NCBI GenBank assembly: GCA_937872315.1
Contig: CALMST010000252.1
Location: 71,781-135,780, forward strand
Direction: 5' to 3'
From: an uncultured Ignavibacteria bacterium
GTDB lineage: Bacteria; Bacteroidota; Ignavibacteria; Tepidaquicellales; Tepidaquicellaceae
DNA length: 64,000 bases
Each line of letters opens with the position of its first letter. Position 1 is the stretch's first letter. Below, in pieces: positions 1 through 28,517 of the stretch. The position numbers and the translations under genes are program-made. The notes beneath the pieces are model-generated. The model did no database searches and was not told the origin of the DNA. It saw nothing but the letters and a program-made list of their open reading frames with translations.

Positions 1-980
1 TTGGCTTACCTATGGTTACTACATTGTGTTCCCTTACCGGATCATCCGTAAGTGTTGCGCACACAGTTGTTTCAGTTGGTCCGTATGCATTTACTACTCT
101 TATTCCCCGGGATGTAAATGTTTCTGCCGTTTCAATATTCAGCGCTTCTCCTGCCGAGACTATAGTTTTTATTGACGGCATTTCTGCTGTCATATCTCTG
201 ATTGTCTGCTGAAATGAAGAAGGTAATGTTGCTAATTCAATTCCGTATTCATTGATCAGATATTGAAATTTATCAGCCGAGAGAATATCTTCCTTATTAC
301 AAAGTACCAGACAGCCCCTGCTCAGCAAGGTATTGAATATGTCATAACACGATGCATCAAAACCTGATGATGCAAACTGCAGTGTCTTCATTCCCGGTTT
401 CAGCCAAAGCAATTCTTCCTGACTAAGTGAAAGATTAACTACTCCCTTATGTTCGATCATAACGCCTTTTGGCTTTCCTGTCGAACCGGATGTGTAGATA
501 ACATATGCAAGATTTTCCGGAGTTATATCCTTTTGTAAATTTTCTTTTGAATGCTTGCTGATCTCACTTTTCTCTGAATCAATTTCAATAATTTCAACAC
601 TGTTTAATTCAGGTAATCTCAGTCCGTTATCAAATGTCTTTCTGCTTGTGATAAGTAAATTTGCATTTATATCCTCAAGCATAAACAACATTCTTTCTTC
701 CGGATATTCAGGATCGATCGGGACATAAGCAGCGCCTGCTTTAAGTATTCCGAATATTGCAATGATCATTTCAATGCTCCTGTCTATGCAGATAGGAACA
801 AATGTTTCGGTCTTTACCCCTTTCTCTTTTAAGTAATGGGCAAACTGATTCGAGCGTTCATTAAGTTCAATGTATGATACCTTTTCATTCTCATACTCAA
901 GCGCTATCGATTCGGGTATTTGTTTTCCGTATTCTTCAACTATATCTGCTATAGTTTTTTCTTTTGGATAATTTCTTTCA
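1..980 (-). other. NRPS domain: adenylation domain A4, truncated by window edge (partial code DAYTVAAVC-, Phe/Tyr-like)
   Basis: Verified motifs: YTSGSTGKPKG (~461-521), SSGFDASCYDIF (~330-365), GIELATLPSSF (~205-240), TIVSAGEA (~150-175) and NAYGPTETTVCAT (~65-100). Confidence 0.75.
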
Positions 981-3900
981 TTATCATTAAACTCAATAAG
1001 CAGCTGCCTTGACTCTTTTTCAGTGATCATATTTAAAGTACCGATCTTCTGATCAGGAGATTTCAAAACAGAAACAAGAATTTCCTTGAAGTGAGAAGTC
1101 ATTCTTAAGATCGTCTCTTCAGTATAAAGATCTGTACAATACTCAACATTTCCTTCAATGCCTTCCGGTGTTTCAGTAAGACTGAAAGTAATATCGATCT
1201 TGGAAATATTATTAGAAAATTCTTCAACATTCAGGATTGCATCTCCAAGTTTGAGCTCCGGAACTTCAGGGGTATTCTGAAGCATAAAAGAAACCTGAAA
1301 CAACGGGCTTCTGCTCATGTCCCGTTGCTTTACAACCGCATCAACTATTTTTTCAAAAGGAACATCCTGATGTTCATATGCTTCAAGTGTGGTTGATCTG
1401 ACTTTATGCAAAAAATCTCTGAAAGGTAATTCACCGTTTATTTCACTTCTCATCGCCACTGTATTTATAAAGAAACCGATCATGTCCTCAGTCTCAGCCT
1501 GTTGTCTTCCGGCTACCGGACTTCCAACTGTGAAATCTTCCTGACCGCTGTATCTGTATAGCAATACATTATAGGCTGACAACAAGGTCATAAACAAAGT
1601 GACATCATTCTGTCTGGAAAATTTAAGCAACGAATCTGTCAGATTTTTGTCAATACTGAAGTTTGCATTTGCACCCTTTTTACTCTGAACTGCCGGTCTT
1701 GCAAAATCAACAGGTAGCTGAAGAGGCTCTACTCCATATAATTTTTCTTTCCAGTAATCTAATTTATTGTCTAATACTTCACCCTGAAGATATTCTCTTT
1801 GCCAGATAGAATAATCGGCAAACTGAATTTCAAGAGGATTTAGATCAGGATCCCTCTTCTCTTCATGTGCTTTGTAGAACTCAACTAGTTCTTTTACAAT
1901 TACTGAGATAGACCAGCCATCAGATGCAATGTGGTGCATAGTTAAAACGAGTATCTGCTCATCGTCATTTAATTTTATTAAATGTCCTCTGAGCATGTTA
2001 TCTGCTGCAAGATCAAACGGAACATTGATCAGCTCCTGAATATAATTCTTTAACGCGGTCTGATGTCCATTATATTTTGTACCGTCAATAAATTCAAGCT
2101 CAAATCCGTCTTTCTCATTTACATACTGGTAAGCTTTTCCTTCATGTTCTTTGATAACTGTACGGAGTATTTCATGTCTGTTTACAATATTCTTAAACGT
2201 ACTTTCCAAAGCTTCTGTATCAACATTCCCTTTTATTCTTAAAACAGCAGGCATATGATACTGAATGCTTCCTTCAAGTTTATCAATGAACCAGATCCGC
2301 TCCTGCGAGAATGATAAAGGTATAAATTCCGGCCGCTCTTTTATTTTGGCAATCGGTAATTTATAAACTTTGCTGTCTGAATTTTTTTCCAAAAGGCGTG
2401 CAAGCTCTTCAACTGTAGGCTGAATGAAAAAATCTTTTATTGAAAGTTCGTAACCGAGCTCTTTCCTGACTGAAGAGATAACCCGCATAGCTAAAAGTGA
2501 GTGACCGCCGAGATCAAAGAAGTTATCTTTAATTCCGATACGATCTGCATGAAGCAATTCTTTCCATATCTCCGCAAGTTTCTCTTCGGTTATATTTCGC
2601 GGAGCAATATATTCATTACTTGCATATTCGGTATCTGCAGGTTTCGGTAATAATTTTTTATTGATCTTTCCGCTTTGATTTAAAGGGAAACTTTCCATTT
2701 CAACCCATACAGCCGGAACCATGTACTGAGGGAGTTTACTCTGCAGATATGAAATTGCTTCTTCTTTTTTAAAGTCTCCGGATGTTGTCACATAAGCAAC
2801 AAGTCTCCTGCTGCCGCTTGCATCTTCAGGCGCAAGCATAACAGTCTGCTGCACCAAGCCGCTTTGCATTAGCACGCTTTCTATCTCACCAAGTTCAATT
2901 CTGAAACCTCTGATCTTTACCTGATCATCCATCCTGCCGGCATACTCTATATTTCCGTCAGGCAGCCATCTGCTCAGATCACCGGTCCTGTATATTCTGC
3001 TGCCTGGAATTTTGCTGAAAGGATCTTTAACGAATTTTTCTTTGGTTAACTCGGGACGATTCAGATAACCTCTCGCAACCTGTACTCCTCCGATATGAAG
3101 CTGACCTATTCCGCCTACAGGTACGAGTTCATCTTCATTATTCAGTATATACATTGAAGTATTTGAGATTGCTTTACCAATCGGTACAATCTCAATTTTC
3201 TTACCGTCTCTGGGCAATTCCCAGTATGTAACTTCTATAGCTGCTTCCGTTGGTCCGTATAAATTATGTAATTCGGTCTTTTCAAATTTCTCTTTAAACA
3301 ATTCCGCATGTGAAGGTTTAAGAGCTTCACCGCTGCAGACTACATATTTTAATCCAGTATTATCTCCACGCTCAATATCATTCAGATATATCTCCAGCAT
3401 CGAAGGAACGAAATGAATCATCGTAATTTTTTCTTTATCAATAACTGATTTCAAATATGAAGTATCCTTTTCACCACCCGGTCTTGCAAATACAAGTCTA
3501 GCTCCGGAGATCAGGAATGAGAATAATTCCCATACAGACACATCAAAACAATAAGTTGTTTTCTGCAGTATTGAATCTTCTGAGGTCAAATTAAAATAAT
3601 CCCTTCCCCAAAGAAGTCTGTTAACAACTCCTCGATGCTCATTCATCACACCCTTCGGCCGGCCTGTCGAACCGGATGTATAAATAACATAAGCAAGATT
3701 GGTTGAATTTATTACTGTATCAACTTTCTCTTTCGAAAACTTTTCTATCTCACTCCAGTCCGAATCAATATTTACCAGTTCAGTATTCACCGGAAATATA
3801 AAACGAGAGCTGCTTTCTTTCTTACTTACAACAATTGAAGCCGATGTATCTTCAAGCAGAAAATTAATTCTTTCCTGCGGGTATTCCGGATCAACAGGAA

Positions 3901-6900
3901 CATATGCCCCTCCCGATTTCATTATGCCAAACAGACCGATTATCATTTCAAGACTTCTCTCCAGACAGATCGGAACTAATGTTTCAATCTTTACTCCCTT
4001 ACTATGTAGATAATGAGCAAGTTGATTTGATTTCTCATCCAGCTCTTTAAATGTCAGCTTTTCATCTTCAAAAACTACTGCTATGCTATCCGGAGTCTTC
4101 TTTACCTGATCTTCAAATAATTCAAATATGGTTTTGTCTTTTGGATAATCAACTTCCTTTCCGTTAAAGTCTGAAAGTATCTGATGTTCTTCCTGTTTTG
4201 TAAGCATCGGCAAAGAACCTATCTTATTCTCCGGATCTTCCGCGACAGAATTTAACAACTCCTTAAAATGAGTCATCATTATTGCTATCGTATTCTCTTT
4301 GAACAGGTCAGTACAATAATCAGCCGAGCCAATAAGCCCTTCAGGGGTTTCTGTCATGGAAACAGATATATCAAACTTGGAAATATTATTTACAAATTCT
4401 TCTTTTTCCAAAACAAGTTTATTCAGATCTATCTCAGGCACTTCCGGAGCATTCTGTAAAATAAACATTATCTGAAACAGCGGACTTCTGCTGACATCCC
4501 TTTGTTTGACAACAGCTTCTACAATTTTCTCAAAAGGTACTTCCTGATTTTCAAAGGCTCCGAATGTATTGATTTTAACCTGCTCAAGTAAATCTGTAAA
4601 AGTAAATGAATTTTCAATTTCATTTCTGAGTACAAGTGTATTCACAAAAAACCCTATCAAATGTTCAGCTTCTTTCTGCTGTCTTCCGGCTACAGGACTT
4701 CCAACACTTATATCCTTCTGACCGCTGTATCTGTAAAGAAGTATATTGAATGCTGCAAGTAAAGTCATGTAAAGTGTTGCGCCGTTTTGTTTAGACAACT
4801 GCTCAAGTTTATCTGTGAGTTCTTTGCTTATCTTAAACTCAAAGGATGCGCCTCTGATACTCTGGACTGCAGGTCTTATAAAATCAGCCGGAAGCTGAAG
4901 CGGTTCGGCTCCGGTTAATTTTGATTTCCAGTATTCCAGTTTTTTATCTAACACTTCATCTGTAAGATATTTTTTCTGCCATATGGAAAAATCTGCATAT
5001 TGAATCTGTAACGGAAGCAAATTTGCTTCCCTGTTTTCACAATATGCTTTGTAAAGTTCTGAAAGTTCATTTACAATTACTGACAAAGACCAGCCATCTG
5101 AAGATATGTGATGCATTGTTACCACAAGAACACTTTCATTTTCATCAACATTAATAAGATCCGCTCTCAGCATAAAATCCGATAAAAGATCAAATGGTTT
5201 ATTGATAAGATCCTGAATATAGCTTTGTAATCCGGCAGCATCATTTTTGAATTCTGCACCGTCCATTTCATGAAGCCCCCATTTGTTACTATTCAGTATT
5301 TTCTGATATCCCGTACCGTTTTTTTCATATATAACTGTTCTTAAAACTTCATGTCTTTCAATAATACTTTGCAATGCTTTTGATAAAGCAGTTTTATTAA
5401 TATCACCTTTCAATCTGAATACAGCCGGGATGTGATACTGGACTGTACCTTCCAGACGGTCTATAAACCATAATCTTTCCTGACTGAATGATAACGGAAT
5501 ATGTTCCGGTCTATCATCCGCTTTGATCGGCGGTAAAACTGAGAAAGAATTTCCTTTCAGGATCAGGTCAGCCAGTTCGGTAATTGTTGGATAATAAAAA
5601 ATATCTTTTATGCTTATCTCAGAATTAAATTCCCGCCTGATAGCCGAGATCAGTCTAATTGCAAGCAAAGAATGTCCGCCGAGCTCAAAGAAGTTATCGT
5701 TAATTCCCGCCTGCTCAATGTTTAAAAGGTCTTTCCAAATTGCAGCAAGTTTTTCTTCAGTCTCATTCCGCGGAGCAATATATTCATTTCTTAAAAGTTC
5801 ACTGGCATCAATATCCGGTAAAGCTTTTTTATTGATCTTTCCGCTGGTGTTAAGAGGCAGGCTTTCCATTTCAACCCAGAGAGCAGGAATCATATAATCC
5901 GGAAGTTTATGTCTGAGTTGTGAGATGATCTCTTCTTTATTGAAATTAAAACCATCTTCCGGTACTACATATGCAACTAGTTTTTTTGTACCCGCTTTAT
6001 CTTCCTTTGCAAGTATTACTGCATTACTTACCGATTCTATTTCAAACAATACACTCTCGATCTCACTCAGCTCAATTCTGTACCCGCGTATCTTGACCTG
6101 ATCATCTATCCTTCCAAGATATTCAATATTCCCCTCAGCAGTCCATCTGCACAGGTCACCTGTTTTATATATTTTAGAATCCGGATCATTACTGAACGGA
6201 TTCGGAATAAATTTTTCCTTTGTTAATTCTTCATTGCTGATATATCCCATAGATACACCATCTCCGCCGATATGCAGCTCTCCTCCGACACCAACCGGAA
6301 CTAATTTTCCCGATGTATCCAGAACATACAGCTGAGTATTGGATAAAGGTTTTCCGATCGGAACCGTGCCTTCATTTCTTTTTTCATTAACGGTATATGA
6401 AGTTGCATAGGTTGTTGTCTCCGTAGGTCCGTAAACATGCATGATGACATTATCACCAACTACATCCAGGGCTCTGTTTACGTGTGAAAGCGAAACCATT
6501 TCACCTCCGAATAATATCTTTCTCAAACTCCTGAAAGCCTCCGCATTAATATCAACAATCGTATTGAACAAAGCTGTTGTCATAAAGACAACAGAAATTT
6601 TTTGTTCTGTCATAACTCTCGCAAGTTCGTCTCCGTCCGATGCCCATTCATCTTTTATCAGATGCAGACTGGCACCGGTCAGAAGCGATCCATAGATATC
6701 ATAAGTCGAACCGTCAAAAGAATAATTTGACCATTGAAGCACCCTGTCTCCTTCTCTGATCGCTATGCCGCCTGTATCATAAACAAGTTTGATAACATTT
6801 CTGTGACTTACTGCAATACCTTTAGGACGGCCTGTTGTACCTGAAGTAAACATTACATAAATGCATGAATCAATTTTAGCTTTTATGCCCGGTGTTTTAT

Positions 6901-9900
6901 CTGAAGCAGATTCTGAATCTTCTATATTTATGAAATCATAAAAAGAAAATTCTTTTAGACCACTTTTTTCAAGTAAGTTTTTATCGGTATATACAATATT
7001 TTTAATTCCACAGTCTTCCGTGATGAATTGAATTCTTTCAGCAGGGTAATCGGTATTGAACGGAACATAGGAGCAACCTGCTTTTAGTATCCCGAATATT
7101 CCGGTCATCATCTCAATACATCTGTATGATAACAATCCGATCTTATCACCCGGATTAATTCCTTTTCCGATCAGATGATTAGCAAGTTTACTGGCACGAT
7201 CATCGAGTTCCTTATAAGTAATGCTTTCATTTTCATATACCACTGCAATTGACTCAGGTGTCTTTAAAACCTGCTCTTCAAATAATTCGACAGCACTTTT
7301 ATCAACGGGATATTCAGCTTCTGTATCATTGAATTCTGATAATAATTTTTTCTCATCAGATTCAGAAAGTATATAAATATCATTAATACTTTTTTTCTCA
7401 TTTGAAATTATCTGCTGAAGTACATTCTCAAAGTGTTTGCTTATCTCATTAATGTATTCCCGGTTGAATACATTTTCATTATAAATGAAATTAATATTTA
7501 TCTGATCCGAATTATTTATAAGCAAAGATAAAGGATAATTACTCTGCTCCTTCATCATGACATTATCAACTTTAAGCTTCCAGTTCTTGGATCTGATGAG
7601 CTCGTTTAGCGGATAATTCTCAAATACAATTATGCTGTCAAACAGATCACCACTTATACCTGTTTGATTCTGAATTTCCTGTAATGGTGTGTATTGATAC
7701 TTAGCAGACTCAACCTGTTTGCTTTGAATTTCCTGAAGCCAGTTAATCGTCTCTGCTTTATCTTTTTGTAAAAGTCTGGAATGAAGAGGAAGAGTGTTGA
7801 TGTATAGCCCGACTTTCTTTTCTATTCCCGGCAGTTCGTCCGGACGGCCTGAAACGATCACTCCGAATGCAACATCTTCATTTCCTGTATATCTGTGCAG
7901 AAGATATGACCAGACACCCTGCAGTAAAGTATTTAATGTTAAGCGGTTCTTTTGTGCGTATGATTCTGCTCTATCCTTTGTCTCTTCATTCAGGATCAAA
8001 TTAAAAGTATCATAATCTCCGACGCCTTTTGTTCGCTGGGTTGTAATACCCGAAAATGGAAGCAGAGTACTTTGCTCAATTCCCTGCATGTAATCCTTCC
8101 AGTAAATCAGCTGTTCATCTTTATCTTTTCTTTCCAGGAACCTGATGTAATCAAGATAATTATCAGAATCCGTTTTTATATTTTCATCACTACCTGTAAG
8201 ATCTTCATAAGTCTTTAAAAACTCTTCCATCAGAATTGCAAGTGACCAGCCGTCAAATAACAAATGATGCGAAGTCCATATCATTTTATAATTGCTCTCA
8301 TCGAGTTTCAGCAGGACAATATTCATTAGCGGCACAGAGCTCAGGGAAAAACCGTTTAAACGGTTTTTTTCGCTAATTCCCTCAATAGTCAGCCGCTGCT
8401 CTTCGCTTCCCATCCCGCTCAGATCCTTCAAAATTACAGGCATCTCAACATCCCTGTATACCACCTGAACCGGAATTCTGAACACATCATTATAAAAACC
8501 ACTTCTTAGCGAACTGTGATTTACTATGAGCTGATTCCAGCTCTTCCTTATCAGTTCAATATCCGGATCTTTCAGATCACAGCTCAGCTGTTCAATATAT
8601 GCTCCGCCGTCAGTATCATATAAAGCATGGAACAGCATTCCTTCCTGAAGACCACTTAATCTGTATATCGATTCTATATTATTTCTTCGGGTTGTGTCCC
8701 CGTATTTTTCATCGAGAAATCCGTCAAGTTCTTCATAACTTATTTCTGAACCAAGACCGAAATCCGAAGGAGTAAATATAAGATCTGAATTTTTAACTCC
8801 GAGACAGTGTGTAATTATTGTATTCAGATTTTCTGAATAATCACTGGTAAGTTTATTTATCGTATCAAATTCAAAATGCTTGGTGCTGTAGTTCCAGTTT
8901 AAAACTAACTTATCATCTTTAATGATGGCATTGATTGTCAGTTTCTCTCTTACTTTTTGTTCCGGACTAATGTCTGTTCCGGCAGCTGCAGGAGTACCGG
9001 AAAATATATTGCTTTCGCCTGTCACGTTATCCAGTTGCCCTAAATAATTATACAATATTTCCGGAGTAATGCTGTCTTCAAAATTCCCGTTTTTATTTAT
9101 ATACTTTAACACACCATATCCCAGCCCTTTACCGGGAATTCTTCTAATCTGTTCTTTTACAGACTTTATATGATCCGAAATATTTTTTTCAGAATCTGCG
9201 TTCAGCAGTACAGGATATATACTCGTGAACCACCCTACCGTCCTGCTTATATCTATTCTATCGGAAATTTCTTCACGTCCATGACCTTCCATTCCGATTA
9301 CAATCTGCCCGGAATTTTCTCTGCTGCATAATGTCATGGCTAAAGCGCAAAGCAGAATATCATTAATATCAGTATGATAAATACCCGGAACATCCTTTAA
9401 TAAATGACGGGTCTTAGTCTGATCTAGTTCTACAGTCTTTAATTCTATATCTTTTGCAATTAATTCAGCTGAATATTCTTTATCGACTTTAATTTGTTTA
9501 TAACTATCCTGAATTTGTTTCCAGTAATTTTCCTGAGATTGTAATCTTTTACTTTTTCCGAATTCCGCAAGTGCCTGATACCATTGTCTGTATGAGCTTC
9601 CTTTTTCTCCAAGCTCCGGTTCAATTCCATTCCGGTAATTTTCCAGGATCATTTCAAGATCACCAAGTAAAATTCTCCATGAGACTCCGTCAACAGCAAG
9701 ATGATGTATTATAATGAATATCCTGTTATTTAATTCTTCTTCAGGTGTTAATACTAATACAAACCTTGCTAGTTCACCTTTCTCAATATCCAGACTCTTC
9801 TGATAATTTTCAGCATGCTCTTTAATTAAATCTTCTAATTCTTTTTTATCTGCTCTTGAATTTCTAAGATCAGCAGTCAATAATATTCCGTTTGCAGTTC

Positions 9901-13636: not shown

Positions 13637-13642
13637 TATGTT

Positions 13643-16600: not shown

Positions 16601-19600
16601 GTATGCTTCAGATCCATCTTTGAATTTACTAAGTATCCAGAATCTCTTCTGAGCATGTGACAATTCATAAAGATCCTTTTCCGGTTGTTTTTTAATATCT
16701 GGAAACTGGGTACTCTTTTCAATTTCAAGTGCTTTTGAAAGTCTGTAAATAGTGGGATTTGAAAATATTGTCCCGATGTCAGTTCTGACATTCAACACCT
16801 TATTGATCCTTGAAGAGAGTCTGACTGCATTTAGACTATGACCTCCTAGTTCAAAGAAATTATCATTAATTCCTACCTTTTCAATTTTTAGAATTTCTTT
16901 CCAGAGTTCAGATAATTTTACTTCAATTTCTGTTTCCGCTTCCTGATATTCGGCATTTACTGTTTCACTGATCTGGGGATCCGGAAATGCTTTCCTGTCA
17001 ATTTTACCGTTGGATGTTACAGGAAATGATCCCATTTCAACCCAGACAGCCGGGATCATATATTCCGGTAATTTTTTTGCAAGGAAATTTCTGATCCTGT
17101 CACTTTCATATCCATGCTCAGGTATTACATAAGCAACTAATCTGTTATTTCCGCTGCTGTCAGTACCGGATAACACCACTGAATTTTTTACAAGCCCTGA
17201 ATCAAGTATCACTGCTTCAATTTCGCCAAGCTCTATTCTGTAACCGCGGATCTTTACCTGATCATCTATTCTCCCAAGAAACTCTATATTTCCGTCTGTC
17301 ATCCATCTTCCCAGATCACCTGTTCTGTACATTAACTCTTTTCCGGATTTTATAAACGGATTATTTACAAACTTTTCCTCAGTTATCTCAGGCAGATTCA
17401 AATAACCTCTAGCAAGACAATTCCCCGATATGCATATCTCACCGGAGACTCCGACCGGACAGATCTCATTATAGTTGTCAGCTATATATACACGAATATC
17501 GGATAGTGGTTTTCCGATCGGTAAAGTTAAATTACTGAAAGTTTTCCGGTCATTTCTTACCTGATATTCTATAGCTGTAACTGTAGTTTCAGTCGGACCA
17601 TATTCATTATAAAAATTAACTTTATCTTTCCAGTTATCACTTAATTCATGTTTGCAAACATCCCCGCCTGCTATGACCCTTTTAAGATCAGGGAAATTGC
17701 TGCTATCCGGAACAATGTTTTCAAGAAATGCCGGAGTTGCATGAAGATGAGTTATTTTTTTCTCAATTAAATATTCATTGAATTTTTCCTGATCCAGCTG
17801 AAGTCCTTCACGAAATAAAACTAAAGTTGCACCATTGGTCAAAGCCAGAAATATCTGTTCGACAGATGCATCAAAACTGTAATTTGAAAACTGCAATATT
17901 CTGTCAGCAGAAGTAATATTAAAATATTCACTTTGTGCTCTGACAAGATTTACTACGGTTTTATTTTCTATGATAACACCTTTTGGTTTACCTGTCGAAC
18001 CGGAAGTGTATATCACATATGCCGCATTTTCAGATTTCAGATCTGTCTTTGGATTATCTGATGATTGATTTTTCAGTTTCAAAATTGTTTCAGGATCATC
18101 AAGAATTATATTTTCTATGTTTCCATTATCGTGTAATTTCAATGAACTCTTACTGCTGCTTAAAATAATACTCGCATCTGTATCCTGAAGCATGTAACTG
18201 ATCCTGTCTGCCGGATACTCCGGATCAATCGGGACATAAACACCGCCAGCCTTGAGAATTCCAATAATTCCAATTATCATATCCAGACTTCTTTCAATAA
18301 TTATCGGTACAAGTTTTTCATTTTTTACACCTTTTAAAAGTAAATAATTTGCCAGTCTGTTGGAGCGGGTATTGAGTTCCTGATATGACAGCTCTTCGTC
18401 ATGAAAGATGAGAGCTGGATTATCAGGTGAGTTCTTAACCTGATCAGGTATAAGGTCTGTAAGTAAAACGGAATTGAATTCCGTTTTACCCAACAAAACT
18501 GTCCCGTTGAATCCCTCAAGTAAATTCTCCTCTTCCGGCGGAATAATTCTTACTCTTTTCAATTCCGATGAAAAATTTTCCTTTAATTGCTTTATAACAA
18601 ACAATATTCTTTTTACAAAAAGCTCTGCTTCAGTTTCATTAAAATATTCCCTGCTATATTTGACAATAAACTGAACGGGATTTTCTTTTCCGTAATCCCT
18701 CCAGTATAACTGCAGAGGACCTGTATCATAATCACTTTCCAGTCTTATTACTTCTGATTTTATTTCACTTCCAAAATCAGGTGAAAAATTCAAAGGCTCA
18801 TAATTTAAACTGACCTCAAATAAATTTTCCTTTTGTATATCTCCTGATGACTTATCCTTTAGATTTCTTTTGATCTCACTTAAAGGATAATTCTGATGCC
18901 GGTAATCGCTTCTCTGTGCCTGCTTGATGAAATGCAGAATATCTTTTACTGTCTGATCTCCTTCATATACTCCCCTGAATGGCAATACTCCGCTGAACAT
19001 TCCTACTGTATTTCGTAATACCTTCGAACCTCTTTTATGTACCGGTACACCAATAACAGGTTCTTTCACCTTTGAAGTCTTTCCAAAATAAATTAATAAA
19101 GCTGCTAAGATCAATTGCTGAATTCCGGAATCAGTTGTCTTCTCAATTTCTGACAACTCAGCTTTTTCTTCTTCCCGTATATTTAAAACATATTTTCCAA
19201 TATCAATCACTGACTTATCTTTCCTGATATACTTTCTCTGTAATAAAGGTTCAGATCTGTGACTTATCTTTTCCTTCCAGTATTTCTCATCATTACTGTA
19301 TGTTCCGGAATTTAAATATTCACCGGACTTTGAGATCTCTTCCAGATATGAAGGATAATTAAATTCATCTTCACCACCTTCTGTTAATGATTTATATTTT
19401 TGTGCTACATATTGAATGAAAACTATAAAACCAAAACCATCAGTGATCAAATGATGATATCTTCCGAAAAACCAATGTTCTTTATCAGATATTTTTAAAA
19501 GAGAATGTTCATATAAAGGATTTTCCTTTTTCAATATAAAAGGTGTATTGAATCTGTTTTGCATCCATCGAATAGCATCTTGTTCACTATCTTTCTTTCC

Positions 19601-19867
19601 TGAAAAATCAATATCAACAATACCCGTATCAGCGGATCCTTCATTCAAATAAAAATCTGTCCCTTCATTTTCCGTATCGAATCTCATATTAAAAACATCA
19701 AATACATACGGAGCCGAATTCACCGTTTGAAAAAATTTTTCTTTATTCAGTGAACCCTTTAATTTAATATATCCGCCAAGATTATAATGAGGACTGTCTT
19801 TATTTATCAACTGATCCACATATATGTCCCTTTGTGCCGGATGCATTGGAAAAGTTGCTTTTTGCAT
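13643..19867 (-). CDS. Non-ribosomal peptide synthetase, 2074 aa: starter-type C - A - T - C - FkbH-like (HAD phosphatase + Cys acyltransferase) domain
   Basis: ORF-track translation shows HHLITDGFG (19436-19456), AAYVIYTSGSTGKPKG (~17979-18025), NGKIDRKAFP, FFELGGHSLNAVRL (Ser 16835-16837), HHIISDGWS (~16248-16275), ALDCDNTLW (14630-14656) and FLLSCRVLGR (13841-13870, Cys 13856-13858). Confidence 0.93.
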   Translation of the reverse strand: MQKATFPMHPAQRDIYVDQLINKDSPHYNLGGYIKLKGSLNKEKFFQTVNSAPYVFDVFNMRFDTENEGTDFYLNEGSADTGIVDIDFSGKKDSEQDAIRWMQNRFNTPFILKKENPLYEHSLLKISDKEHWFFGRYHHLITDGFGFIVFIQYVAQKYKSLTEGGEDEFNYPSYLEEISKSGEYLNSGTYSNDEKYWKEKISHRSEPLLQRKYIRKDKSVIDIGKYVLNIREEEKAELSEIEKTTDSGIQQLILAALLIYFGKTSKVKEPVIGVPVHKRGSKVLRNTVGMFSGVLPFRGVYEGDQTVKDILHFIKQAQRSDYRHQNYPLSEIKRNLKDKSSGDIQKENLFEVSLNYEPLNFSPDFGSEIKSEVIRLESDYDTGPLQLYWRDYGKENPVQFIVKYSREYFNETEAELFVKRILFVIKQLKENFSSELKRVRIIPPEEENLLEGFNGTVLLGKTEFNSVLLTDLIPDQVKNSPDNPALIFHDEELSYQELNTRSNRLANYLLLKGVKNEKLVPIIIERSLDMIIGIIGILKAGGVYVPIDPEYPADRISYMLQDTDASIILSSSKSSLKLHDNGNIENIILDDPETILKLKNQSSDNPKTDLKSENAAYVIYTSGSTGKPKGVIIENKTVVNLVRAQSEYFNITSADRILQFSNYSFDASVEQIFLALTNGATLVLFREGLQLDQEKFNEYLIEKKITHLHATPAFLENIVPDSSNFPDLKRVIAGGDVCKHELSDNWKDKVNFYNEYGPTETTVTAIEYQVRNDRKTFSNLTLPIGKPLSDIRVYIADNYNEICPVGVSGEICISGNCLARGYLNLPEITEEKFVNNPFIKSGKELMYRTGDLGRWMTDGNIEFLGRIDDQVKIRGYRIELGEIEAVILDSGLVKNSVVLSGTDSSGNNRLVAYVIPEHGYESDRIRNFLAKKLPEYMIPAVWVEMGSFPVTSNGKIDRKAFPDPQISETVNAEYQEAETEIEVKLSELWKEILKIEKVGINDNFFELGGHSLNAVRLSSRINKVLNVRTDIGTIFSNPTIYRLSKALEIEKSTQFPDIKKQPEKDLYELSHAQKRFWILSKFKDGSEAYNVSNLFEIKGKLNPDAFRSAFEEVVKKHEILRTVFIENRGEPYQKILSYESTGFEIFEKDLTGSENADAIIKEYREEDIKKAFDLKTGPLIRIYLFKISVEKHIVLFNIHHIISDGWSKEILINDFLSFYNSCCLKEENDIKPLPIQYKDYAEWHKSTFEEQGKYWKEVYKNGIPLLDFPADNERPEVLSYSGNKISGIVSEKLTSELQMMAVRNNVSLNNLMMILYGLSVAAGSGQEDVVIGTVSSGRSHPDLEDLVGVFINFLPVRISPEKHLKLSEFIGKCRNDIVGAFNNQDYPFDLMVEDIIKKRDVSRNPFFDTMMNFQIIDNLSEMKSNSETDKTHNEVIELKSYGSGNEDLFQSVLDFKLDAVPDDLRINLHLSYNTRLYSEKRMKEFLDDYIGLLENAVSKPDNYLSEYIKWSNENKKMETEININKESVQEKSTVASMPVNVCSSFVTEPVKEYMEYWSNEIGIKIKIDIAPYNQVFQQLMNPGSLLYSDKGINFLFIRTEDWLRDKKADNASEQIEFLDKTFKEFLEILKNAVEKIYIPFLVMIVPVNSITDKDFEKETVDHLDKINKELELFLNRISSVQFIDVNVIKELYDVEDVYDPKTDELGHMPFTPEFYAALGTYMTRKVSAFMNPSYKVIALDCDNTLWKGICGEVGALNVEIDENYSELQEFFIEKYNEGFLLVLSSKNNEDDVWEVFDKHPGMKLKREHIAAHRINWEPKPQNLVSIAKELNLGINSFIFVDDNEFETDQMTQNCPDVLSLTLPGEDESFSEFLNHIWAFDYFRITDEDRKRNEMYKVEKQRKSEEENFGTLDDFLKSLEIKVDMKAPGPKDLERAVQLTLRTNQFNLNGVRKTPEEVKRYTGDENSICRIVDVKDRFGEYGIVGLVMGKVNGNILEIDTFLLSCRVLGRNVEGTILSELESYCVEKGLGEIKLYFQPTQKNKPFQEFLANSEWNIDTKTNAHSKNIKLTEETAV
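13646..15260 (-). other. FkbH-like domain (HAD-IIIC phosphatase core plus C-terminal Cys-containing acyltransferase-like part)
   Basis: DxDxT motif in VIALDCDNTLWKG (14630-14656). Downstream motifs VLSSKNNEDD, FVDDNEFE and RTNQFNL. Conserved TFLLSCRVLGRNVE (Cys codon 13856-13858). This pattern is characteristic of FkbH/OzmB-type glyceryl-ACP-forming enzymes. Confidence 0.8.
15340..16700 (-). other. NRPS domain: condensation domain immediately upstream of the FkbH-like domain
   Basis: LYELSHAQKRFWIL (~16631-16680) and HHIISDGWS (~16248-16275). Confidence 0.85.
16790..16960 (-). other. NRPS domain: peptidyl carrier (T) domain
   Basis: FFELGGHSLNAVRL, with the phosphopantetheine Ser codon at 16835-16837. 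Confidence 0.85.
16990..18450 (-). other. NRPS domain: adenylation domain (hand-derived specificity code DAEHIGEVTK)
   Basis: Motifs TSGSTGKPKG, FDASVEQIF, ITHLHATPAF, RVIAGGDV, NEYGPTETTVTAIEY, YRTGDLGRW, GRIDDQVKIRGYRIELGEIE and NGKIDRK are present. The code was obtained by manual alignment to GrsA-PheA positions 235-517. Confidence 0.85.
18580..19867 (-). other. NRPS domain: N-terminal starter-type condensation domain (Cs)
   Basis: The protein begins directly with a C domain (MQKATFPMHPAQRDIYVDQL...HWFFGRYHHLITDGFG). No A-T loading module lies upstream. From memory, the layout resembles lipoinitiation C domains such as the N-terminus of SrfA-A. Confidence 0.65.
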
Positions 19868-19962
19868 TTTTAAAATGTTTCTGATTTGATTAACCTGTTA
19901 ATTTAATTTCTGAGATTTCCAATATTAATTCATGTGTTCTATACCGGTCACATTAATTAATT

Positions 19963-20763
19963 TTAATATTTCTTTGTCAGCCTTTTTGTGTGTGTGGAAA
20001 CTGCGGCTTTTGTATAATACTTGTAATACCTGAGATTTTTTCTGTTCCACCAGTAGTTGATGTTTATGGAAAAATCCATAGACCTGACATGATGCCACCA
20101 GTGCAAAGGAATGTACAATATATCTCCGGGATAAATTGTAGCTTTATAAGCCTGGGATTTTTCATACAGAGGAAATTTTTTGTGATCTACATTGTCAAGG
20201 TCTATCAAACTGATCTGCCTTAAAGTCTTTGGACCATGTACATTCGGATAAAGATATTTATCATCATCAGGATGAAAAAGTATGATTTCTTTTTTCCCTT
20301 TGATCTGAATAAGAAAATTATCCGATCCGTCAAAATGCAGCGGGGATACACAACCTGCACCGCCTATCCATAAATTTCTTACTTTGTTTTTGTCAGTTTC
20401 TTTCATCCACTTTGGTTCATCAAGATCTCCGAGAAGTTCAGGAAAATTATCCGGAATGGAAGACTGCTGAAGATAATATGCCTTATTTGTTTTAATATAA
20501 TCCACCGCCTCATCAAAAGGCAGAAATACCCTGGAAACACTTCCTTTATGATAATCATAAACTCCGCTCTGACTTGTCCTTACATCTACTTTCTTCTTTC
20601 CAAATAAAGAATTGAAATATTCCGCTGACCATTTTTTAAAAGCTTTGTAATCGTTTGCTCCGCCTTTTATTATTACCGGGATGCTTGGCTTATAATAGTT
20701 ATTGTCGAATTCATCTGTTGATAATTCTGAAACGGTTGAAATATCTTTATATTTTGTATCCAT
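19963..20763 (-). CDS. JmjC / Cupin_8-type Fe(II)/2-oxoglutarate-dependent oxygenase (putative tailoring hydroxylase)
   Basis: NLWIGGAGCVSPLHFDGSDNFLIQIKGKKEIILFHP (HxD metal ligands) and YIPLHWWHHVRS (distal His). It sits between the thioesterase and the first NRPS gene on the same strand. Confidence 0.7.
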   Translation of the reverse strand: MDTKYKDISTVSELSTDEFDNNYYKPSIPVIIKGGANDYKAFKKWSAEYFNSLFGKKKVDVRTSQSGVYDYHKGSVSRVFLPFDEAVDYIKTNKAYYLQQSSIPDNFPELLGDLDEPKWMKETDKNKVRNLWIGGAGCVSPLHFDGSDNFLIQIKGKKEIILFHPDDDKYLYPNVHGPKTLRQISLIDLDNVDHKKFPLYEKSQAYKATIYPGDILYIPLHWWHHVRSMDFSININYWWNRKNLRYYKYYTKAAVSTHTKRLTKKY

Positions 20764-20864
20764 TTTGTTTGGTTTTATTATTCTTTAATGATTCTTTTAA
20801 TTTTGAGATATGTTTTTTTACAGACTGAATTATCTTATCTTTATTTTTAATATATAAATTTCTT

Positions 20865-21596
20865 TTAATTAAATGCTTTTCTATGATTTGAGTTTACTGA
20901 TAAAGTTTTCTCAATTATTTCCATTACTTCTTTCTTCTTTTTGAAAATAAAAAAATGCTTTCCCTCTATTCTGTTGAAATCAATTTCCAAGTTTGTTTCT
21001 TTCTGCCAGAGAAGAATATCGTCAACTTCCATGTCTTCTTCGGTGCCTGTTATAACAGTTATCGGAATGTTTAAAGGCTCTGAATATTTATGAACATAAT
21101 TTTCACATACTTTAAAATCTGATCTCAGTATCGGTTCAAAAAATGCCATAAGTTCTTCAGTATCAAGTATCTCTTCAGGTATTCCGTCAAGATCCTTCAT
21201 TTCCTGAATGAACTCCTTCTGAGGCATTAAATGTCTCTTTCTTTCCCGCTTTTCAAATACTGAAGGACCTGAAGTTCCTGTGATTATTAAATGCATTGGT
21301 GTCTTGTAATTTTTTTCTTCTAATTTTCTCGTAAGCAGATACGCGAGAAGTCCTCCCATGCTGTGACCGTACAATACATAATCTTCATCGCTTATTTTGG
21401 TTTTTATCTGATTAAACAGATCTTCTACAAGCTCGCCTGCATCTGATATAAGAGGTTCTTTTATTCTGGGAACCCGCCCCGGATAATCAAGAGTATGGAA
21501 AATATAATGCGAAGGAGCTGCATCCTCAAACTCTCGGTATGAATATTTATTGCCGCCTGCATACGGAAGACAAAATATTTTCAAAGGTCTGATCAT
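20865..21596 (-). CDS. Type II (editing) thioesterase, alpha/beta hydrolase
   Basis: FCLPYAGGN near the N-terminus, nucleophile elbow GHSMGG, ~240 aa, NRPS context. Confidence 0.85.
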   Translation of the reverse strand: MIRPLKIFCLPYAGGNKYSYREFEDAAPSHYIFHTLDYPGRVPRIKEPLISDAGELVEDLFNQIKTKISDEDYVLYGHSMGGLLAYLLTRKLEEKNYKTPMHLIITGTSGPSVFEKRERKRHLMPQKEFIQEMKDLDGIPEEILDTEELMAFFEPILRSDFKVCENYVHKYSEPLNIPITVITGTEEDMEVDDILLWQKETNLEIDFNRIEGKHFFIFKKKKEVMEIIEKTLSVNSNHRKAFN

Positions 21597-21964
21597 GCTA
21601 ATTTTTTATTATAATTTTCTTCTTTCCGGTATCTGAGAAAGCTTCCTGATAATGAGGCAAAACCTGCAACCATTCCGGCTATAATTCCGGTCAGTATGAT
21701 CAGTAAAACCGGACTGTTCATGAATATCATAAGTTGAGATATCTTCTGTGCCAAAATATTCCCGTTATTACTGCTTATAAAAAAACCCAGGCCTCCCCAT
21801 AATAAAAACAATGATAAGAAACCGCAGCTAAAAGCTTTTACTGGTTTCATTGGAATTATTAACGAAACCAAAAATGCAACTACAGCAATGCTCCACCATG
21901 GTAAGAAAATACCTGCAGGATAACTAAGTACAGCAGTTAAAATTAATGATCCAATAAATTTCAA
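21593..21964 (-). CDS. Small integral membrane protein (about 4 TM helices), unknown function
   Basis: Hydrophobic segments span the whole 123-aa ORF. Its stop overlaps the thioesterase start by 4 nt (21593-21596), which suggests translational coupling. Confidence 0.55.
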   Translation of the reverse strand: MKFIGSLILTAVLSYPAGIFLPWWSIAVVAFLVSLIIPMKPVKAFSCGFLSLFLLWGGLGFFISSNNGNILAQKISQLMIFMNSPVLLIILTGIIAGMVAGFASLSGSFLRYRKEENYNKKLA

Positions 21965-22000
21965 AATTTTTCTGTTATTTATATAAACTGTTTGTCTGTT

Positions 22001-24466
22001 CTAATTTGTAAAATTAATTTTCCATTTTACCCTGCCGTTATTTTGTTCATCAGTTGTCATAAGCCAAAGAGGATAATATTTTCCTTCTGCCCAGTAATCA
22101 ATAAAATCATCATAAAATCTGCTTCCCGGATTTCCGCTTTGTCCGCCGGGATAAATTCCGTAAGCTTCCGTTTCCTGAGTCATATTCACAACCATTCTCC
22201 AGCTCGGTCCGTGAATGGTTTCCGTTGCATTTATGTTATGTTTGCTACCGCCAATTGGAATGTTATACCTCCCAAACGGAACCAGTCTGGATAAATGATT
22301 TATCTGTGTTCCCTTGAATTTATCCCAGTCAAGTCTTCCCTTACTTTCATGTTTTATTAACTGCTCCGATGTAGTTTTAAACGCAGCTGTTACTATATCG
22401 GTCAGAGTTTCTTTTTTATCGGTAGTAATATCATCAACAAATATAAATCCCGGATCTCTTAACAAACCATCGATCAGTGAAGTCTCATCAGGACGCTTTA
22501 TTATTTCAGGAGCATCTTTGTAATCATCATCATAAATGGACTTGTAAAAATTCATCCAGAAAAGCTCAAAGACCGTTGCTCCCTGTGAACCGGCATCATT
22601 CCGCAGATCCCAGTTTTTTAAAAGATCATAATATTTTTTTTCATCCGGACTGAGATCACTTACAGTTATATTTGCTAAAATTAATGGTCTTATCACTTCC
22701 GCTACAAGATTGTAATTATCAGTCTGAAGTTTTAACATATCCTCAGTTGTAATATTTTCCATAACTTCTAATCTTCTGTTGATCTCCTTTCCTCTCCAGA
22801 CAGGATAATTTCTTCCAAGATAATACGGATAGGTTTTATCATCTTCAGGCTTCTGATTAGCGCTGCTTACAAATCCTCTTTCGGGATTATACTGGAAAGG
22901 TACTTCATCCTGAGGTATCATTGCCTGCCATAAATAACTGCTGTCAAAACCGGGCATGACAAAATCACCCTGCTCTTTCCATTTTGCCGGCCACTCTCCC
23001 TGGGTTTTGATTGCAATGTCTCCGCTTTTAGTTGCAAATATTACATTCTGACCCGGAGTCTTAAGTTCAAGTATGGCTTCATTGAAATCATCATAATTCT
23101 TCGAATGATTCAGCAGATAAAATGCTTTAAGATCGTTACTCGGATCATTACCCTTCCATCTTACAGCATAATATTTGTTGTTTGAAATTTTTGAACCGCT
23201 GAATTTATTATCATACATTACAGGACAAAGATCGTCTCCCAGTTTAACATACGAAACGGAATCCGTGAATTCAGCTGAACCATTTATCTTTATAATTTCC
23301 GGTCTCCAAATTGTCCGGTGCCATTCCCCGTTATACCAGTATTCATTCCTGCTTTCATCTTTGAATCTTATCTCAAAATAATCCCTGACATCCCTTCCTC
23401 CGTTTGTAAATCCGAATGAACAACTGTCGTTAAATCCGACGATTACTCCCGGAACTCCCGGAAAGCTTACTCCATATACATTTACAGAAGGAGCAGTGAT
23501 CTGAACCTCATACCAGATTGACGGCAGATTCATAGTCAAATGAAGATCATTACTCAATATAGGTGCTCCGGATCTGGTTTTCTTTCCGCTTACAGCCCAG
23601 TTATTACTTCCGTTTTCCCTGTTAGGCTTCTCCTGTTCCGATACTTCAATATCTTCTCTCTTAAGATATACGGAATCAACATCCTCCGGGATCACTGGAA
23701 ACACTCCTTGTTTTTTTATCTGTGCTCCGTCTGGTATTACCGGATCAAGCGAATCCTGAATTATCGGAAACAGCAGATCAAATCTTTCCTTATCAAAATA
23801 ATTCTTTGCATTTGTCATCTCAAAATCTTCGTCAAATCCAGCAAGATCATAACTCATATATTTCATAAATAAAACTGTCTTTAGATTGCTCCATTTTTCA
23901 GGTTTATATCCCAGCAACTTATATTCAACCGGATACTTGTTCTCCGGAAGATTTTCAATATAAGAATTTACACCTGCAGTATATGCATCATATACAGCTT
24001 TCATCACAGGATCATTTTCAATTATTTTCAAAGTATTTTCAGCCGAATATACCATTCCCAATCTTCTCATTTGTCTGTCCCTTTCAAGCATCCCTGCACC
24101 CATTATCTCACTTAATCTGCCGCCAGCTGAAAAAGTCTGTAATTCCATTTGCCATAATCTGAACTTTGCATGTAAATAACCCTGCGCAAAATATGCATCA
24201 TTCTCCTGTTCAGCAAATATATGAGGAACAAGTCTGTCATCTATATATACATTAACCTTTCCCTTTAAAGATGAAAAATTCAGATCCTGATCAAAATTTT
24301 CATTTAACGGCTCAGCGTTCTGCCAGAAACCCTGCTGAGGACTTAAAAACTTACCTATTGCCGGAATTTGAAGACTTCCGACTTTCCAGCTTTTATTTAA
24401 TGTAAATATTAATATTACCGTAACAAAACCTGTAAGTATAAAAGACTTTAACTTTATTGATTGCAT
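22001..24466 (-). CDS. Penicillin acylase family Ntn-hydrolase (PvdQ / acyl-homoserine-lactone acylase-like), N-terminally membrane-anchored or secreted
   Basis: 821 aa with an N-terminal hydrophobic helix (SFILTGFVTVILIFTL). Candidate beta-subunit nucleophile in NRENG-SNNWAVSGKKTRSGAPILSNDLHL (Ser287 codon 23606-23608). Same strand as the downstream cluster genes, 36 nt upstream of the next gene. Confidence 0.85.
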   Translation of the reverse strand: MQSIKLKSFILTGFVTVILIFTLNKSWKVGSLQIPAIGKFLSPQQGFWQNAEPLNENFDQDLNFSSLKGKVNVYIDDRLVPHIFAEQENDAYFAQGYLHAKFRLWQMELQTFSAGGRLSEIMGAGMLERDRQMRRLGMVYSAENTLKIIENDPVMKAVYDAYTAGVNSYIENLPENKYPVEYKLLGYKPEKWSNLKTVLFMKYMSYDLAGFDEDFEMTNAKNYFDKERFDLLFPIIQDSLDPVIPDGAQIKKQGVFPVIPEDVDSVYLKREDIEVSEQEKPNRENGSNNWAVSGKKTRSGAPILSNDLHLTMNLPSIWYEVQITAPSVNVYGVSFPGVPGVIVGFNDSCSFGFTNGGRDVRDYFEIRFKDESRNEYWYNGEWHRTIWRPEIIKINGSAEFTDSVSYVKLGDDLCPVMYDNKFSGSKISNNKYYAVRWKGNDPSNDLKAFYLLNHSKNYDDFNEAILELKTPGQNVIFATKSGDIAIKTQGEWPAKWKEQGDFVMPGFDSSYLWQAMIPQDEVPFQYNPERGFVSSANQKPEDDKTYPYYLGRNYPVWRGKEINRRLEVMENITTEDMLKLQTDNYNLVAEVIRPLILANITVSDLSPDEKKYYDLLKNWDLRNDAGSQGATVFELFWMNFYKSIYDDDYKDAPEIIKRPDETSLIDGLLRDPGFIFVDDITTDKKETLTDIVTAAFKTTSEQLIKHESKGRLDWDKFKGTQINHLSRLVPFGRYNIPIGGSKHNINATETIHGPSWRMVVNMTQETEAYGIYPGGQSGNPGSRFYDDFIDYWAEGKYYPLWLMTTDEQNNGRVKWKINFTN

Positions 24467-25137: not shown

Positions 25138-25629
25138 ATGATTAAAACCATAAAACATAATCTGTCTTTAAAACTTGACCTTCTCGGTTTTTCAGCTTCA
25201 ACTATTTGCGCAATTCATTGCGCTCTTATGCCATTCATAATTGTTTTTCTGCCGATGTTTGGATTACAGTTTATAGCTGACCCTTTGGTTGAATACATTT
25301 TTATAGCTGTAAGTCTGATAATAGGCGCTTTTACTTTCAGGCACGGATATTTTAACCACCATAAAAAACTCTACCCATTTCTCTTATTCCTTACAGGCTT
25401 TTTTATCATAGTTGCGGGACATACTCTTTTTCACAATCATTCGCATGAAATCAATTCTAATCATGAATTTTCCGATACGGATAATATATTATTTCTTCTG
25501 ATAGCCCCGATAGGCGCTTTCATTATTGCTGCTTCACATTTGATAAACAGAAGATTGTCAAAAAATACTAAAATTTGTTGTACCATGGAAGCCGTTGTCA
25601 AAAATGATTCAGGAATCGAAATAAATTAA
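25138..25629 (+). CDS. MerC-like membrane protein with His-rich loop
   Basis: Four hydrophobic helices, ICAIHCALMP motif, HNHSHEINSNHE loop and a C-terminal CC pair. First gene of the plus-strand unit that precedes the TonB-dependent receptor. Confidence 0.55.
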   Translation: MIKTIKHNLSLKLDLLGFSASTICAIHCALMPFIIVFLPMFGLQFIADPLVEYIFIAVSLIIGAFTFRHGYFNHHKKLYPFLLFLTGFFIIVAGHTLFHNHSHEINSNHEFSDTDNILFLLIAPIGAFIIAASHLINRRLSKNTKICCTMEAVVKNDSGIEIN

Positions 25630-25636
25630 CCATTAA

Positions 25637-25948
25637 ATGAAAAAATTAAACACATTTAAAAAGATTCAGAAGTTTACATCTCTTTTATTTGTTATATTTT
25701 TTCTATTGCTGAATAGCGGGACTGAAATACTTCACCATCATTCAGAATCCCGTGACCATAATCATAATAAGGATAACTGCAGGATATGTCTGAATCTCGA
25801 AAAACTTACATGTCCTTTTCTTTTATCCGGCAGTTATGATCTGGATCCTTATACAAACATCACTTTTCATATATCTTCATTAGCATTACCGGCTTCACTT
25901 AATTTTAGTAATTTTCACTCAGGAAGATCCCCCCCTTCTGAAGTATAA
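25637..25948 (+). CDS. Small membrane-anchored His/Cys-rich protein (putative metal-binding)
   Basis: N-terminal hydrophobic helix followed by EILHHHSESRDHNHNKDNCRIC. Lies 8 nt after the MerC-like gene. Confidence 0.45.
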   Translation: MKKLNTFKKIQKFTSLLFVIFFLLLNSGTEILHHHSESRDHNHNKDNCRICLNLEKLTCPFLLSGSYDLDPYTNITFHISSLALPASLNFSNFHSGRSPPSEV

Positions 25949-28449: not shown

Positions 28450-28517
28450 TTTAATTATTTTTTGTATAGAATTTTGCTTTTTTATGCTATAAACTAAAAT
28501 AATTATATTTATAAATT

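Follow-up and report, generated by a model that had tools for sequence, protein, structure and literature searches.

An orphan nonribosomal peptide synthetase cluster with a predicted trans-loaded glycerate module in an uncultured Ignavibacteria bacterium

Glycerate enters some nonribosomal peptides through FkbH domains. In the cystomanamide synthetase, an internal module composed of a condensation (C) domain, FkbH, and a peptidyl carrier protein (PCP) puts glycerate between two amino acids, giving the order Phe-glycerate-Tyr (PMC9581180, PMC8949500). In the vioprolide pathway, and as proposed for corramycin, an ester-forming C domain lies upstream of FkbH and the acylated precursor is later hydrolyzed (PMC8949500, PMC10099666). 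The laxaphycin/scytocyclamide cluster encodes two cupin_8 proteins, LxaF and LxaG, that are proposed β-hydroxylases of residues in modules bearing an epimerization (E) domain (PMC7524897). Here, we describe a nonribosomal peptide synthetase (NRPS) gene cluster in a stretch of 64,000 nucleotides from an uncultured Ignavibacteria bacterium (the window; positions 71,781 to 135,780 of contig CALMST010000252.1, assembly GCA_937872315.1). How does this cluster compare with the described systems?

Our analysis indicates that the window probably holds the 5' part of an intact operon for a multimodular NRPS that makes an N-acylated depsipeptide. The block from 24466 down to 1 on the minus strand consists of six co-directional genes with spacings of 36, -4, 101, 95, and 6 nt, in agreement with the original prediction of co-directional genes with gaps of no more than 101 nt. 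The last two genes encode the synthetases NRPS-1 and NRPS-2. The frame ending at 13636 on the minus strand contained no stops in 4545 codons (2 to 13636), and the other two frames had 340 and 506. At the GC content of the window (34.5%), zero stops over this length cannot be attributed to chance. Full computational translation therefore confirmed that NRPS-2 is a single open reverse frame, as had been proposed. NRPS-2 was left out of the open reading frame (ORF) listing because its stop codon is beyond the window edge. The plus-strand ORFs listed in its place are indeed antisense to it, but those of at least 60 aa within 1 to 13636 number eight and not ten.

Pfam and NCBIfam profile scans, run on whole proteins and on overlapping chunks, gave the domain string Cstarter-A-T-C-FkbH for NRPS-1, followed on the next protein by T-C-A-T-E-C-A-T-C-A-T-C-A, where A is an adenylation domain, T is a carrier (PP-binding) domain, and the last A is cut. 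The domains are as follows.

13643..19867, minus strand: NRPS-1, 2074 aa; C (residues 4-450), A (475-955), T (984-1047), C (1065-1515), FkbH (about 1545-2062)
18518-19858, minus strand: starter C domain (C1) of NRPS-1
17003-18445, minus strand: A1 of NRPS-1
16727-16918, minus strand: T1 of NRPS-1
15323-16675, minus strand: C2 of NRPS-1
13682-15235, minus strand: FkbH of NRPS-1 (TIGR01686)
2..13636, minus strand: NRPS-2, first 4545 of 5289 codons; T-C-A-T-E-C-A-T-C-A-T-C-A (cut)
13310-13498, minus strand: T2 of NRPS-2 (residues 47-109)
11915-13243, minus strand: C3 of NRPS-2
10430-11854, minus strand: A2 of NRPS-2
10157-10342, minus strand: T3 of NRPS-2
8762-10099, minus strand: E of NRPS-2, with the E-specific motifs HHLAVDGVSW, EGHGRE, RTVGWFT, and YNYLGQ
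7340-8674, minus strand: C4 of NRPS-2, DCL type, with the DCL motif LSGLQEGMLFH
5837-7282, minus strand: A3 of NRPS-2
5561-5755, minus strand: T4 of NRPS-2
4175-5506, minus strand: C5 of NRPS-2
2666-4117, minus strand: A4 of NRPS-2
2390-2584, minus strand: T5 of NRPS-2
998-2326, minus strand: C6 of NRPS-2
2-934, minus strand: A5 of NRPS-2 (from residue 4235 past 4545), incomplete at the window edge

The hallmarks of a modular NRPS, namely, C domains with HHxxxDG, A domains with core motifs, and carriers with the phosphopantetheine serine, were all found. HHxxxDG was present in every one of the seven Condensation-family domains (PF00668; six C and one E). All five A domains (PF00501) have D235, and the four complete ones have K517; A5 runs off the window before that residue. 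The original prediction of five A, six C, one E, and one FkbH domain was borne out by these scans. It had also counted six T domains, but the window holds five PF00550 matches, each with GG(H/D/N)S, and exactly five GGxS serine motifs; the sixth T lies to the left of the window.

We compared this architecture with the published description of the cystomanamide synthetase of Cystobacter fuscus. In NRPS-1, as in cystomanamide module 4, FkbH stands in place of an A domain in an internal module past an amino acid module. Glycerate lies between two residues in both, in the order Phe-glycerate-Tyr there and, as predicted, X-glycerate-D-X here, where X is the substrate of A1 and A2. The PCP is fused to FkbH in cystomanamide, whereas in this cluster a separate protein, NRPS-2, carries the T domain, and the phylum, peptide, and tailoring genes differ. 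With the vioprolide and corramycin lines (FAAL-ACP-C-FkbH-T), the cluster shares a C domain directly upstream of FkbH, which is taken there to esterify glyceryl-S-T. It also shares, by prediction, the prodrug logic in which a secreted hydrolase takes off an N-acyl group attached earlier (PMC8949500, PMC10099666). In corramycin, too, glycerate is followed by a D-residue made by an E domain. In contrast to these lines, a starter C domain and a full A-T module precede C-FkbH here, the ester donor would be acyl-aminoacyl rather than fatty acyl, T is supplied in trans, and the candidate hydrolase is of the Ntn type (penicillin amidase family). No FAAL-ACP initiation didomain is encoded upstream or elsewhere in the window, and NRPS-1 begins with a C domain.

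A feature of the locus that the original prediction had not remarked on is the break between NRPS-1 and NRPS-2. The junction (13634-13645, minus strand) reads TAA-AAC-ATA-TTG. The NRPS-1 stop codon, TAA at 13643-13645, is in the frame of NRPS-2, and without that one TAA both synthetases (6.6 kaa, thousand amino acids) would be one frame. The TTG two codons past the TAA is the sole start candidate ahead of T2 and has no obvious ribosome-binding site; the junction looks like one of termination-reinitiation coupling. It is identical in three assemblies from different samples, which differ from the window by 5 to 16 nt over 26,225 nt (ENA ERZ794931 NODE_64, 137,695 bp; ENA ERZ27240677 k141_139011, 85,835 bp; and NCBI GCA_035327025.1 DAOLED010000007.1). 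A 70%-identical relative from Ignavibacteria (contig L085) has this layout as well, with the sequence TAA-AAT-ATA-TTG. In nine of nine relative contigs examined, the FkbH protein ends at this point too, and a T domain (a PP-binding match or a translated T) stands first in the gene that follows, which either overlaps the NRPS-1 homolog or lies 3 to 6 nt beyond it. Other stop and start geometries than that of the window and L085 are seen in L001, L002, L004, L086, L090, and L091. Taken together, the junctions comprise TAA, two codons, and TTG; TAG, one codon, and ATG; a stop and start that overlap as TAATG; and an overlap of 23 nt in another frame.

The 53 full-length homologs of NRPS-1 (42 to 100% identity) are 1991 to 2087 aa long, and this similarity in length indicates that a five-domain gene ending at FkbH is conserved. 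Within the same clade, FkbH genes that stand alone (~547 aa) and precede a T-C-A gene are common, and fused FkbH-T was found only among more distant homologs with 36 to 39% identity. Thus, the cognate carrier is not fused 3' of FkbH as it is in cystomanamide, vioprolide, corramycin, and OzmB; a stop codon lies between the two, and the split is kept across the clade. On these comparisons, we regard the break between NRPS-1 and NRPS-2 as a true gene boundary. Because T2 belongs to NRPS-2 and the family keeps this split, the carrier domain used by FkbH and C2 is predicted to be provided in trans. This is not a usual place for a break between NRPS subunits, and the trans arrangement is functionally like the pairs of FkbH and discrete ACP in polyketide pathways.

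The FkbH domain itself scored 298.1 bits against TIGR01686 (cutoff, 146.65) and carries both HAD motif I (D1740-C-D1742-N-T1744) and S2003-C2004-R2005. It retains all residues that are invariant over 121 homologs; each motif residue is shared by 118 or more of the 121, and most by all of them. In OzmB-type FkbH enzymes, the cysteine of the SCR motif carries the glyceryl intermediate. C1 was closest to solved starter C domains, with PDB 7C1H/K/P (RzmA-Cs, ~1e-29) ahead of CDA-C1 4JN3 (6e-18); in the NCBIfam scan it was also similar to the N-terminal C domains of EntF and MxcG. Like the starter C domains RzmA-Cs, CDA PS1 C1, and SrfAA C1, it is N-terminal in the first synthetase and has an intact HHxxxDG, but it is only ~25 to 30% identical to them, and its surroundings encode neither a FAAL nor an ACP. 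C2 is LCL-like, yet only ~30% identical to C3, C5, and C6, which are 52 to 58% identical to one another. This divergence fits a specialized acceptor, and C2, directly upstream of FkbH, is predicted to carry out the ester chemistry.

That the cluster continues to the left had been predicted, and it does. Gene calls on 99.9%-identical contigs gave a full NRPS-2 of 5289 aa, with its start 6 nt past NRPS-1. The best genome matches to its left end were Ignavibacteria metagenome-assembled genomes (MAGs) at 88%, 87%, and 59% identity. In the 88%-identical relative (L007), NRPS-2 goes on as the rest of A5, T, and E and then stops. A third synthetase of more than 2581 aa (NRPS-3) comes next, with the order C (DCL type), A, T, C, A (with an FkbM-type methyltransferase inserted), T, C, and onwards. 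FkbM-family methyltransferases (PF05050) lie inside an A domain of a downstream NRPS both in L007 (19381-22323) and in Flavitalea antarctica (L086, 24313-26210). A homology search with the left-end 775 aa of NRPS-2 returned only fragments of at most 1356 aa. A metagenome scan with the NRPS-3 tail of L007 returned just a 3-kb contig and did not reach the release module of the Ignavibacteria cluster.

For substrate prediction, each A domain was aligned to GrsA-PheA, and the positions used return DAWTIAAICK for GrsA. The Stachelhaus codes and their readings against reference codes (DGFFLGVVYK in the case of A3) are as follows.

A1 and A2: DAEHIGEVTK, no assignment
A3: DGYFLGVTYK, Ile-like
A4: DVWHVSLIEK, Ser
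A5: DAYTVAAVC-, Phe/Tyr-like
A6 (L007): DVQFIAQVVK, Pro-like
A7 (L007): DVWHVSLID-, Ser

A1 and A2 are 58% identical overall and share all 10 residues of the code. DAEHIGEVTK was present in 29 of 53 NRPS-1 homologs, down to ~46% identity; others have Ser, Ala-like, Asn-like, or Asp-like codes there. Two Glu residues in the pocket and 7/10 identity to the bacitracin Lys code weakly suggest that X is a basic residue such as Lys or Arg. The Ser code of the methyltransferase-bearing A domain of L007 suggests O-methyl-Ser. Together, the codes give the probable product acyl-X-O-glyceryl-D-X-(Ile-like)-Ser-D-(Phe/Tyr)-Pro-Ser(possibly O-methylated)-..., and the codes of the window (acidic pocket in A1 and A2, A3 Ile-like, A4 Ser, and A5 Phe/Tyr-like) agree with the product sketch that had been derived by hand.

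How widespread is this type of synthetase? At least 53 cluster representatives carry a gene of the Cstarter-A-T-C-FkbH type, and where checked, the gene that follows begins with a T domain. By these homologies, NRPS-1-type genes form a sizeable undescribed family across Chitinophagaceae and Ignavibacteria. In L085 (JGI), the entire neighborhood of the cluster is syntenic. A complete member was found in Flavitalea antarctica, a cultured member of Chitinophagaceae (GCA_054461535.1, JBTLQG010000001.1, ~189.8-234 kb; L086-L088), in the order type II thioesterase (TEII), CmlA-like hydroxylase, NRPS-1 homolog, and six further NRPS genes. The last of these ends the assembly line with TubC_N-C-A(MT)-T-TE, where MT is a methyltransferase and TE is a thioesterase, and is followed by two GT2 glycosyltransferases. 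Chitinophagaceae members carry upstream either a TEII and a CmlA-like hydroxylase without an acylase or nothing. Because of these differences, the accessory set appears to be lineage specific, with the NRPS core alone conserved.

An exact-sequence lookup with NRPS-1 gave no match, although a protein (P0121) listed at 100% identity to it is labeled "MAG TPA: Ignavibacteria bacterium," and the Bacteroidota/Ignavibacteriota-like source proposed from the sequence is thereby confirmed. Close homologs of the cluster were all unnamed or generically named MAG proteins. Full-text literature searches found no described FkbH-containing NRPS from Bacteroidota or Ignavibacteria, and we found no characterized nonribosomal peptide from Ignavibacteriota. 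The original prediction had not recognized the pathway. This stands insofar as the names of close homologs and the full-text searches pointed to no characterized counterpart, but the logic is recognizable: the literature has precedents for C-FkbH-T modules, for starter C domains, for acylases of the periplasm, and for cupin_8 hydroxylases. The cluster is an orphan, intact NRPS pathway, probably to a lipodepsipeptide, that follows known enzymology and is not new at the level of mechanism. Its elements are all known; what is its own is their arrangement, in which a starter C domain and a full amino acid module precede C-FkbH, the T domain is provided in trans, and the hydroxylase is of the JmjC type.

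Four accessory genes lie upstream of NRPS-1.

22001..24466, minus strand: acylase, 821 aa, penicillin-amidase-family Ntn-hydrolase (PF01804, 637 bits)
21593..21964, minus strand: small membrane protein, 123 aa, TTG start, four hydrophobic segments (hydropathy)
20865..21596, minus strand: TEII, 243 aa (PF00975, 133 bits; GHSMG at residue 77)
19963..20763, minus strand: JmjC/Cupin_8 Fe(II)/2-oxoglutarate oxygenase, 266 aa (PF13621, 172.7 bits versus 27.4)

The N terminus of the acylase is a hydrophobic signal or anchor, and its nucleophile is predicted to be Ser287, which follows a Gly in the sequence GSNNWAV; residue 287 aligns with β-chain residue 1 of cephalosporin and penicillin G acylases. 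Among solved structures it was closest to D-succinylase 7eby (1e-56), with the cephalosporin and penicillin G acylases next. PvdQ is the paradigm of a periplasmic Ntn acylase that takes off an N-acyl chain. Like PvdQ, the acylase belongs to PF01804, carries an N-terminal signal for secretion, has a predicted Ser nucleophile as the first residue of the β-subunit, and is encoded beside an NRPS with a predicted N-acylated precursor. The two differ in that the acylase does not reach the PvdQ equivalog NF051460 (36.2 bits against a cutoff of 950) and is closest in structure to D-succinylase. Over the mature part, the acylases of the window and L085 are 86% identical. In L085 (5343-7797), gene calling splits the acylase into parts of 71 aa and 749 aa with an 11-nt overlap, possibly through a frameshift or assembly error at the end of the signal peptide.

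The 123-aa protein had no Pfam or NCBIfam match. It is 77% identical to the protein encoded at the same place in L085, which indicates that the gene is real and conserved. The TEII has both the PF00975 match and the GxSxG nucleophile elbow of its family. The oxygenase has the iron motif HFD at residues 143-145 and further His residues at about 222-226, which are candidates for the distal ligand. Its closest structure was JMJD5 (PDB name arginyl hydroxylase, 6e-40), followed by TYW5-type proteins, FIH, and JMJD7; JMJD5 hydroxylates at the C-3 position. With LxaF/LxaG, human JMJD5, JMJD7, and FIH, it shares membership in the PF13621 JmjC-like 2-oxoglutarate oxygenases, and like LxaF/LxaG it adjoins an assembly line with an E module. 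In other members of the cluster family, the equivalent position is taken by a CmlA-like diiron hydroxylase. Co-occurrence did not link the JmjC gene to DAEHIGEVTK among the relatives; the code is also present in those without a visible upstream hydroxylase gene.

To the right of the acylase, a very AT-rich intergenic region of 671 nt separates the cluster from a divergent block.

25138..29105, plus strand: MerC-like protein, 103-aa ORF, TonB-dependent receptor, CxxCxxCC protein

This block also adjoins the cluster in the close relatives L082-L085, whose close kinship means that synteny alone proves nothing; it may be associated with the cluster, for example through metals or uptake. The acylase sets the right border of the cluster, although the divergent block (25138-29105) might be included. 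Housekeeping genes (ClpB, FabH, NadE, GGT, DsbD, TruA, and others) occupy the other 40 kb of the window. The stretch 41258-44314 encodes a multi-pass membrane protein of 635 aa, which has a TPR at its C terminus, and then runs for ~0.9 to 1.1 kb without an ORF of at least 90 aa, tRNA, or Rfam match. The GC content is 34 to 38% in the cluster and 30 to 36% elsewhere in the window, with no clear mark of recent transfer. Scans of the full window for tRNA and Rfam families gave no matches. Promoter-like sites (61 versus 56 expected) and terminator-like sites (8 versus 6 expected) were at chance level and were not used. As had been noted for the cluster, scans of the window proteins found no TE or reductase (R) release domain, MbtH, phosphopantetheinyl transferase (PPTase), or exporter, and this holds for the whole 64 kb.

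We propose the following pathway. The starter C domain of NRPS-1 would transfer an acyl group, probably from fatty acyl-CoA, to residue 1 activated by A1. FkbH would dephosphorylate a glycolytic phosphoglycerate and load glyceryl onto T2 in trans, and C2 would then join acyl-X1 to the glycerate hydroxyl, giving an ester. NRPS-2 would add X2, selected by the same code; the E domain would convert X2 to the D form for the DCL-type C domain. An Ile-like residue, Ser, and Phe/Tyr would be added next. To the left of the window, as judged from the 88%-identical relative, a second E domain would act before NRPS-3 adds Pro, Ser (by the A domain with the FkbM-type methyltransferase insert), and more. 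The TEII would edit misprimed carriers, and the JMJD5/FIH-like oxygenase would β-hydroxylate a residue. After export, the secreted Ntn-hydrolase acylase would probably remove the N-acyl group.

Could the junction reflect a single gene broken by a nonsense mutation or sequencing error at 13643-13645, leaving a pseudogene or a TAA that is read through? The TAA in the NRPS-2 frame, the mere two codons to a lone TTG start without an obvious ribosome-binding site, and the fusion of distant FkbH homologs (36 to 39% identity) to T would fit such a break. The junction common to three independent assemblies effectively refutes this reading, and the 53 full-length homologs of similar length, the relatives with clear stops before ATG starts (TAATG overlap, 3-nt gap, and 23-nt overlap in another frame), and the standalone FkbH plus T-C-A genes common in the clade point the same way; we consider a broken gene next to impossible. 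A separate alternative concerns the acylase, and perhaps the four-segment membrane protein too, which may serve not peptide maturation but an independent function as an N-acyl-homoserine lactone (AHL) or N-acyl-amino-acid acylase or as a self-resistance enzyme sharing the operon. The acylase is missing in Flavitalea and other members, it is more conserved between the window and L085 than NRPS-1 is (86% versus 70%), and its closest solved homolog is D-succinylase and not PvdQ. Yet it is first in a tight co-directional block, with a 36-nt gap and then a 4-nt overlap of the next two genes, and a starter C domain installs just the type of N-acyl amide that Ntn acylases hydrolyze. Deacylation also has precedent in pyoverdine, vioprolide, and corramycin (PMC10099666). 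On balance, an independent acylase seems fairly unlikely.

The product might instead be a siderophore, exported as an acylated precursor, deacylated in the periplasm by the acylase as by PvdQ in pyoverdine, and taken up in its ferric form via the adjacent TonB-dependent receptor. That receptor, the MerC-like protein, and the CxxCxxCC "zinc/iron-chelating" protein do adjoin the cluster here and in L082-L085, the acylase has its weak PvdQ match, the hydroxylase could make a β-hydroxy chelating group, and C1 resembles the N-terminal C domains of EntF and MxcG. However, no catechol genes (EntA/B/C/E), hydroxamate gene (N-hydroxylase), or Asp-type A code was found in the window, and the predicted Ile, Ser, Phe/Tyr, and Pro are typical of lipopeptides and not of siderophores. 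The acylase scores 36 bits against the 950 of the PvdQ equivalog. Moreover, the CarboxypepD_reg N-terminal domain of the receptor is generic for the lineage, its synteny extends to close relatives only, and family members L086 and L090 have no adjacent receptor. We therefore regard a siderophore as very unlikely and favor an N-acylated depsipeptide.

Several observations weigh against this favored reading. A release domain, PPTase, and exporter were not seen for this genome, and the leftward part is known solely from ~10 kb of the 88%-identical relative. In a literature search that included variants, DAEHIGEVTK matched no code, with one irrelevant match to a code fragment, and the identity of X is a guess. 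The acylase, the membrane protein, and the JmjC gene are absent in more distant family members, and their link to the product is operon position only. Ntn acylases cut amides, and action on the N-acyl group of this product is a prediction. A much stronger reading would combine several proposals. The product would be the first natural product known from Ignavibacteriota and a prodrug-type antibiotic, an N-acyl-(β-hydroxy-Lys/Arg) ester-linked to glycerate and trimmed by a periplasmic Ntn acylase; DAEHIGEVTK would mark an A-domain specificity that had no assignment before; and the split between FkbH and T would mark a distinct trans-loading glycerate subfamily common to Chitinophagaceae and Ignavibacteria. 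That all of these hold jointly is unlikely.

The depsipeptide pathway proposed here leaves the current understanding of NRPS enzymology unchallenged. The cluster is a good lead for genome mining, and its Bacteroidota relatives are unexplored. Because Flavitalea antarctica is cultured, the chemistry could be reachable by experiment; its cluster is complete and ends in a TE. The family could give new glycerate-containing lipodepsipeptides and an assignment for DAEHIGEVTK, and it could serve naturally to test how FkbH and C domains use a carrier in trans.

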